Positions 14,782 to 14,812 of a stretch of 64,000 nt of DNA are shown here, piece by piece. A model generated the notes under the pieces. The model saw nothing but the letters and a program-made list of their open reading frames with translations, searched no databases and had not been told where the DNA came from. The position numbers were made by a program, and so were the translations under genes. Source of the stretch: Escherichia coli (GTDB lineage: Bacteria; Pseudomonadota; Gammaproteobacteria; Enterobacterales; Enterobacteriaceae); the NCBI RefSeq assembly GCF_003334305.1, contig NZ_QOWS01000010.1; one strand, 5' to 3'. The stretch's first letter is position 1, and each line of letters opens with the position of its first letter.

Positions 14782-14812
14782 TTGACCTTCCCCTTGCTGG
14801 AAGGTTTAACCT
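14782..14812 (+). promoter_or_regulatory. copA promoter with CueR operator (MerR-type, 19-bp spacer)
   Basis: -35 TTGACC at 14782-14787; dyad CCTTCC(14786-14791)...GGAAGG(14798-14803) in the spacer; -10-like TAACCT/TTTAAC; about 40 bp upstream of the copA ATG. Confidence 0.85.

Follow-up and report, generated by a model that had tools for sequence, protein, structure and literature searches.

The 64-kb window, i.e., the whole stretch of Escherichia coli DNA analyzed here, carries copA and, on the opposite strand upstream of it, the genes glsA, ybaT, and cueR (Table 1). An earlier note on this DNA had described glsA-ybaT as transcribed divergently from copA over a shared 261-bp intergenic region, and this is the layout that the open reading frames show. 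The interval 14782-14812 within this region spans exactly the first base of a -35 hexamer to the last base of a -10 hexamer. Between cueR and ybaT lies the short remnant of a gene for a type I secretion adaptor.

Table 1. Genes and promoter elements at the cueR-copA locus, with positions in the 64-kb window
Feature	Position	Strand	Basis
cueR, Cu(I)-sensing MerR-family regulator, 135 aa	11831..12238	-	NF007590 308.6 bits, cut-off 244; TIGR02044 207.5, cut-off 147.4
Frameshifted 3' remnant of HlyD-family type I secretion adaptor gene, 98 bp	12235..12332	-	PGAP pseudogene annotation
ybaT, APC-family permease	12363..13655	-	annotation; amino-acid transporter families below curated cut-offs
glsA (ybaS), glutaminase A	13658..14590	-	NF009020 equivalog 561.6 bits, cut-off 395
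glsA-copA divergent intergenic region, 261 bp	14591..14851	.	ORF map
PcopA -35 hexamer TTGACC	14782..14787	+	direct sequence reading
CueR operator, perfect 7-N7-7 dyad ACCTTCC/GGAAGGT	14785..14805	.	inverted-repeat search, 100% complementary
PcopA spacer, 19 bp, TTCCCCTTGCTGGAAGGTT	14788..14806	+	counted; sigma-70 optimum exceeded by 2 bp
PcopA -10 hexamer TAACCT	14807..14812	+	direct sequence reading
copA 5' leader, inferred, 33 nt	14819..14851	+	+1 set 7 nt past -10
copA Shine-Dalgarno AAGGAG	14840..14845	+	direct sequence reading
copA, Cu(I)-exporting P-type ATPase, 834 aa	14852..17356	+	NF007952 equivalog 1743 bits, cut-off 1316

The promoter elements agree with what the earlier note had read from the letters, namely a TTGACC -35 hexamer, an overlong spacer enclosing CCTTCC...GGAAGG, and a weak -10 hexamer. 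By our count the spacer measures 19 bp, and the core half-sites CCTTCC (14786-14791) and GGAAGG (14799-14804) extend to the arms ACCTTCC (14785-14791) and GGAAGGT (14799-14805) of a perfect 7-N7-7 dyad. This dyad shares 3 bp with the -35 hexamer and ends 2 bp short of the -10 hexamer, which agrees with TATAAT at only three of six positions (T1, A2, and T6). The copA start codon follows 40 bp downstream of the -10 hexamer, whose position would place the transcription start at about 14819. Two further repeats were seen nearby. A 12-nt inverted repeat (14810-14821/14832-14843, 83% complementary) joins the region behind the -10 hexamer to the Shine-Dalgarno region, but is improbable as an mRNA structure because its left arm lies mostly upstream of the predicted +1. 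The palindrome AAGGTT-t-AACCTT (14801-14813) is built from the right CueR half-site plus the -10 hexamer, and the -10 region thereby includes a third half-site-like AACCTT, which is probably incidental as it is absent from the copA promoters of Citrobacter and Enterobacter.

We consider it almost certain that 14782-14812 is the chromosomal copA promoter of E. coli, PcopA, a sigma-70 promoter that is switched by CueR, a Cu(I) sensor of the MerR family. The 27-mer copA promoter duplex TTGACCTTCCCCTTGCTGGAAGGTTTA, which was used for EMSA and EPR with CueR (PMC9004249), is found at 14782-14808 of the window. According to cryo-EM work on the transcription activation complex with CueR, the spacer of PcopA is 19 bp long, the core of the box reads CCTTCC-N7-GGAAGG, the inverted repeat overlaps the -35 hexamer by 3 bp, and 2 bp separate the box from the -10 hexamer (PMC8169799). 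All four features are present in the window, and the DNA thus matches the published promoter, as expected from the proposal of the earlier note that this is a MerR-type copA promoter with a CueR dyad. The sequence from -35 to -10, as well as a 61-bp core, is identical to PcopA of E. coli K-12; the window CueR is 100% identical to K-12 CueR and matches solved CueR across 135 residues (E=7.7e-89; PDB 1Q05, 4WLW, 6LDI, 7C17, and 6XH7), with 4WLS and 6XH8 as further matched structures. The flanking genes are the same as well, and K-12-lineage records are 98.5% identical to the window over the 261-bp intergenic region and 98.9% in CopA, i.e., scattered flanking substitutions distinguish the present strain, with no functional difference in promoter or regulator. 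With its 19-bp spacer, a dyad inside this spacer that matches the CueR box, an encoded CueR, and a target gene for metal detoxification, the locus represents a MerR-type promoter system. The K-12 PcopA/CueR system was reportedly described by Outten in 2000 and Stoyanov in 2001, and the switch in its E. coli context is already known. It serves as the model system for promoters activated through distortion of their DNA, and E. coli relies on it as the front line of its defence against copper; its intact state here confirms no more than that the window belongs to the ordinary core genome of E. coli.

CueR dependence and copper response of PcopA in the present strain are expected from its identity with the K-12 material, and metal-dependent activation is likewise predicted from published experiments on the identical sequence, which cover binding, DNA distortion, and copper dependence (PMC8169799, PMC1526738). 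Briefly, the hexamers at a distance of 19 bp are spaced 2 bp in excess and out of helical phase, for which reason RNA polymerase alone would recognize PcopA poorly. A CueR dimer would occupy ACCTTCC-N7-GGAAGGT within the spacer, on the side of the DNA facing away from RNA polymerase, and would act in trans, with cueR 2.5 kb distant. Metal-free CueR would keep the promoter DNA in a repressed shape. CueR loaded with Cu(I), Ag(I), or Au(I) would kink and under-twist the spacer, which would bring the -35 and -10 hexamers into a spacing like that of a 17-bp promoter and turn copA on, and the CopA product would then export Cu(I) from the cytoplasm. Activation is assisted by a contact of CueR with the sigma non-conserved region, and shifting the CueR box by 1 bp toward the -10 hexamer almost abolishes it (PMC8169799, PMC1526738), which explains why the register of the box is conserved.

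The operator precedes the glsA start by about 190 bp within the intergenic region that glsA and copA share, and could in principle serve both directions, such that CueR bound at 14785-14805 would also directly control glsA-ybaT(-cueR), glsA-ybaT would belong to the CueR regulon, and cueR would be autoregulated. This would be in accordance with the proposal of ybaS and ybaT as possible members of the copper regulon (PMC1526738) and with the copper induction of ybaST mentioned in PMC9628877 and PMC10903455. However, scans of the intergenic region revealed neither a second CueR box nor a MerR-type promoter on the minus strand, and ybaS is placed in the GadX/acid-resistance circuitry by the literature. 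By eye, a sequence resembling a GAD box was noted in the intergenic region, but it agrees with the consensus at no more than about 9 of 20 positions. In papers that refer to Djoko et al. 2017 (PMC9628877, PMC6250119, PMC10903455), ybaST is described as copper-induced, as protective against copper at acid pH, and as not under direct CueR control. Direct regulation of glsA-ybaT by CueR from this operator is therefore improbable in our view.

The geometry of PcopA recurs at other CueR-activated promoters. The earlier note had suggested cueO as a check for the CueR site, and CCTTCC-N7-GGAAGG is indeed present at K-12 PcueO, the second CueR-activated promoter, with the same -35 hexamer TTGACC, the same 19-bp spacer, and the same register of the dyad (CCTTCCcgtaaggGGAAGG). 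PcueO differs from PcopA in its central 7 bp (CGTAAGG versus CCTTGCT), in its -10 hexamer TATGCT, and in an asymmetric outer dyad position (ACCTTCC/GGAAGGA). Spacers of 19 bp behind a TTGACC -35 hexamer were also found at PcopA of Citrobacter werkmanii (dyad ACCTTCCcccagatGGAAGGT, -10 TACCCT), Enterobacter sp. Bisph1 (dyad ACCTTTAccttgctGGAAGGT, -10 TAAGCT), and Photorhabdus (dyad ACCTTACccttgcgGGAAGGT, -10 TAACCT). PcopA of Shewanella consists of TTGACT, a 19-bp spacer, and TATCTT, and its 7-N7-7 dyad contains one mismatch, with one half-site diverged. In the alignment, TTGACC is invariant among the copA promoters of E. coli, Citrobacter, Enterobacter, and Photorhabdus plus K-12 PcueO; the 2-bp gap between box and -10 hexamer is kept across the genera compared; and the dyad arms, but not the N7 in their centre, are conserved in E. 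coli, Citrobacter, Enterobacter, and Photorhabdus. Constant arms around a variable centre are what is predicted for the operator of a dimeric helix-turn-helix protein. ZntR/PzntA resembles CueR/PcopA in combining a MerR-family metal sensor with an over-long spacer, which is 20 bp in PzntA, but has another dyad and responds to another metal. ZntR is the next-best family match of the window CueR, well under the ZntR cut-offs.

These comparisons also bear on the length of the spacer, for which the earlier note had named 17 bp, instead of 19-20 bp, as the result that would speak against its reading. An ordinary sigma-70 promoter TTGACC-N17-TTTAAC, with the dyad as a plain repressor site or as an incidental feature, can be drawn on the same sequence, and TTTAAC (14805-14810) even agrees with TATAAT at four of six positions. 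Yet it lacks the critical A2 and T6, and a scan for sigma-70 promoters with conventional spacers of 16-18 bp over 14400-15000 was empty. Reading 17 bp at PcueO yields ACTATG, which is no -10 hexamer, whereas 19 bp yields TATGCT. Moreover, the 19-bp geometry is conserved across genera together with the 2-bp gap, and the 19-bp spacer was assigned by cryo-EM and mutational work (PMC8169799). We thus regard a functional 17-bp spacer as highly improbable and retain the 19-bp, CueR-activated promoter.

PcopA is under stronger constraint than its surroundings. Among 5,426 complete E. coli genomes, 5,423 contain the 261-bp glsA-copA intergenic region at a minimum of 95% identity, mostly 95-99%. The 35-bp stretch 14780-14814 is matched at every base by 5,405 genomes, and the 61-bp core by 4,956. 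Two matches of the copA promoter region in this collection sit on plasmid-classed records. Within the window, the exact CueR dyad occurs once, and the other dyad matches in the 64 kb carry three mismatches each, i.e., are at chance level. A composite scan of both strands (-35 hexamer with five or more of six matches, spacer of 19-20 bp, TANNNT, internal perfect dyad of 6 bp or longer) returned the PcopA site as sole match in the 64 kb; in first-order Markov sequences matched for dinucleotide frequency, 0.07 sites per window were expected and 4 of 60 random sequences had one match. A functionless chance juxtaposition of dyad and hexamers, for which nothing but the small motif size speaks, has a negligible probability in view of this expectation of about 0.07 sites, a core identical in 99.6% of the E. 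coli genomes with flanks of 95-99% in most, conserved arms around a variable centre across genera, and the experimental characterization of the identical sequence (PMC8169799, PMC9004249).

The regulator gene is not adjacent to its target, as had been pointed out in the earlier note; a distance of 2,544 bp, with glsA-ybaT in between, separates the cueR start from the PcopA -35 hexamer. The gene order in K-12 is the same as in the window, and strain A7, in which cueR, ybaT, glsA, and copA are annotated, shows 100% identity to the window over 11700-15000. The location of ybaST between copA and cueR was already published (Djoko et al. 2017, as cited in PMC9628877, PMC6250119, and PMC10903455). 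Like PcopA, the MerR/PmerT divergon of Tn21/Tn501 and the cueR|copA divergons of Salmonella, Enterobacter, Photorhabdus, and Shewanella combine an over-long spacer and an operator dyad in this spacer with activation by DNA distortion. Unlike in the window, the regulator gene in the Tn21/Tn501 mer and the cueR|copA divergons is the immediate divergent neighbour of its target, and the regulator promoter consequently shares the operator region. A mer-like divergon is absent from the window, where the divergent neighbour of copA is glsA instead of cueR, and where cueR is located 2.5 kb off behind glsA-ybaT and the hlyD remnant, without an upstream CueR box.

In Enterobacter, Photorhabdus, and Shewanella, cueR directly and divergently adjoins copA. 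These cueR|copA loci are flanked by qmcA-ybbJ, as in E. coli, and contain no glsA or ybaT within 10 kb. In Photorhabdus, the PcopA -35 hexamer is only 10 bp away from the cueR start codon. Permina et al. reported a cueR|copA divergon in Salmonella and a "ybaS-ybaT-ybbI" operon in E. coli (PMC1526738). Immediate divergent neighbourhood of cueR and copA in the three genera and the reported Salmonella divergon indicate that the layout in E. coli is derived, as judged from a small outgroup sample of about six proteobacterial loci and a CopA scan of genomes that was dominated by the generic P-type ATPase motif MVGDGIND. In the Escherichia lineage, the glutaminase operon glsA-ybaT has split the ancestral cueR|copA divergon. 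In Citrobacter werkmanii, the cueR/copA junction (4428-9994 of locus L004) is occupied by genes for a GntR-type regulator, two Dcu C4-dicarboxylate transporters, and an argininosuccinate-lyase (ArgH-like) homologue. This unrelated cassette at the same junction indicates that the cueR|copA junction was split more than once, and the operator stays with copA in every split.

The 124-bp gap between ybaT and cueR is mostly occupied by the hlyD remnant, whose TGA overlaps the cueR ATG (ATGA at 12238-12235). After repair of a 1-bp deletion in an A-run, the remnant aligns to positions 392-422 of the 422 positions of TIGR01843 (E=8e-7); a Pfam search of the remnant gave no match. An assignment of its sequence (...EYLLKPF...) to the tail of a receiver domain of response regulators was rejected because NCBIfam assigns it to the extreme C-terminus of HlyD-family adaptors and intact HlyD genes occupy the same position in other strains. 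One of these is CE10, in which an island of about 22 kb separates ybaT from cueR. All genes of the island are on the cueR strand and encode a TolC-family protein, the adhesin SiiEA (17-kb gene), a type I secretion ABC permease/ATPase, and HlyD, and the stop codon of the intact hlyD overlaps the cueR start. The siiEA locus is a known accessory adhesin locus (PMC3256949). IAI39 has a longer version of hlyD that aligns without the frameshift; in this strain (L086, NC_011750.1 504459-505730), an IS1 truncates hlyD beside cueR and joins it to allB, and the locus is rearranged with cueR unlinked from glsA-ybaT-copA. The remnant in the present strain is a scar of the deletion of the adhesin/type I secretion island. 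The divergon was thus also split by the siiEA adhesin/type I secretion island, of which the present strain keeps only the 98 bp of hlyD.

A query spanning the ybaT-cueR junction found the compact form in 4,458 of 5,425 E. coli genomes. The junction is split in about 18% of the genomes, with an intact HlyD gene beside cueR among the matches listed and O157:H7 among the split-junction records. Coverage of at least 80% of 11700-15000 in 5,417 of 5,426 genomes had pointed to a universal arrangement, which the junction-spanning query refuted; such coverage is no proof of arrangement, because glsA-ybaT-copA' alone makes up about 80% of the query. The distance of about 2.5 kb between cueR and PcopA given in the earlier note thus holds for the window and for approximately 82% of E. 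coli genomes but not for the remainder, in which the intervening island of about 22 kb places cueR about 25 kb from PcopA. E. coli hence has no fixed distance between regulator and target, which are 2.5 kb apart in the compact form but about 25 kb apart in about one genome in five.

The hlyD scar at the cueR start raises the question of where transcription of cueR now begins. Simple scans of the minus strand of the ybaT-cueR gap revealed neither a canonical sigma-70 promoter nor a terminator. Transcription of cueR presumably now comes from the same-strand genes that precede it. It is possible, if rather doubtful, that the successive insertions of glsA-ybaT and tolC-siiEA-ABC-hlyD removed the operator-linked divergent promoter of cueR and made it the last cistron of a long same-strand array, and that its expression then came from read-through from the acid-induced glsA promoter, from internal signals such as the sigma-54 site in ybaT, or from sequences in the hlyD 3' remnant. 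CueR dosage would in this case be coupled to acid stress instead of autoregulation, and cueR expression would differ between island-positive and island-negative strains. An exact copy of the sigma-54 motif CTGGCACTGGTTTTGCT is located inside ybaT at 12910-12926 on the minus strand; in K-12, a sigma-54 ChIP-seq peak at this motif is reported as intragenic and sense-oriented, at a distance of 679 bp upstream of cueR (PMC4591121).

The other end of cueR is variable among strains as well. In the present strain, ybbJ and cueR end convergently with zero gap (11830/11831). FDAARGOS_1284 has an extra gene for a 407-aa hypothetical protein at the ybbJ-cueR junction, the AVS0947 version of which is frameshifted, and CE10 and IAI39 have a YadA-family adhesin plus IS4 at this junction. 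A placement of the extra DNA of AVS0947 and FDAARGOS_1284 in the ybaT-cueR gap was considered and rejected, as it sits between ybbJ and cueR.

Within copA, the slippery sequence CCCAAAG followed by GCTAA (codons 67-70, 15052-15063 on the plus strand) is intact in the window. A -1 shift at this site would end the reading frame after ...HPKG and yield the 70-aa chaperone CopA(Z), and the K-12 annotation lists the slippery-site product as a joined CDS for a 'soluble Cu(+) chaperone'.
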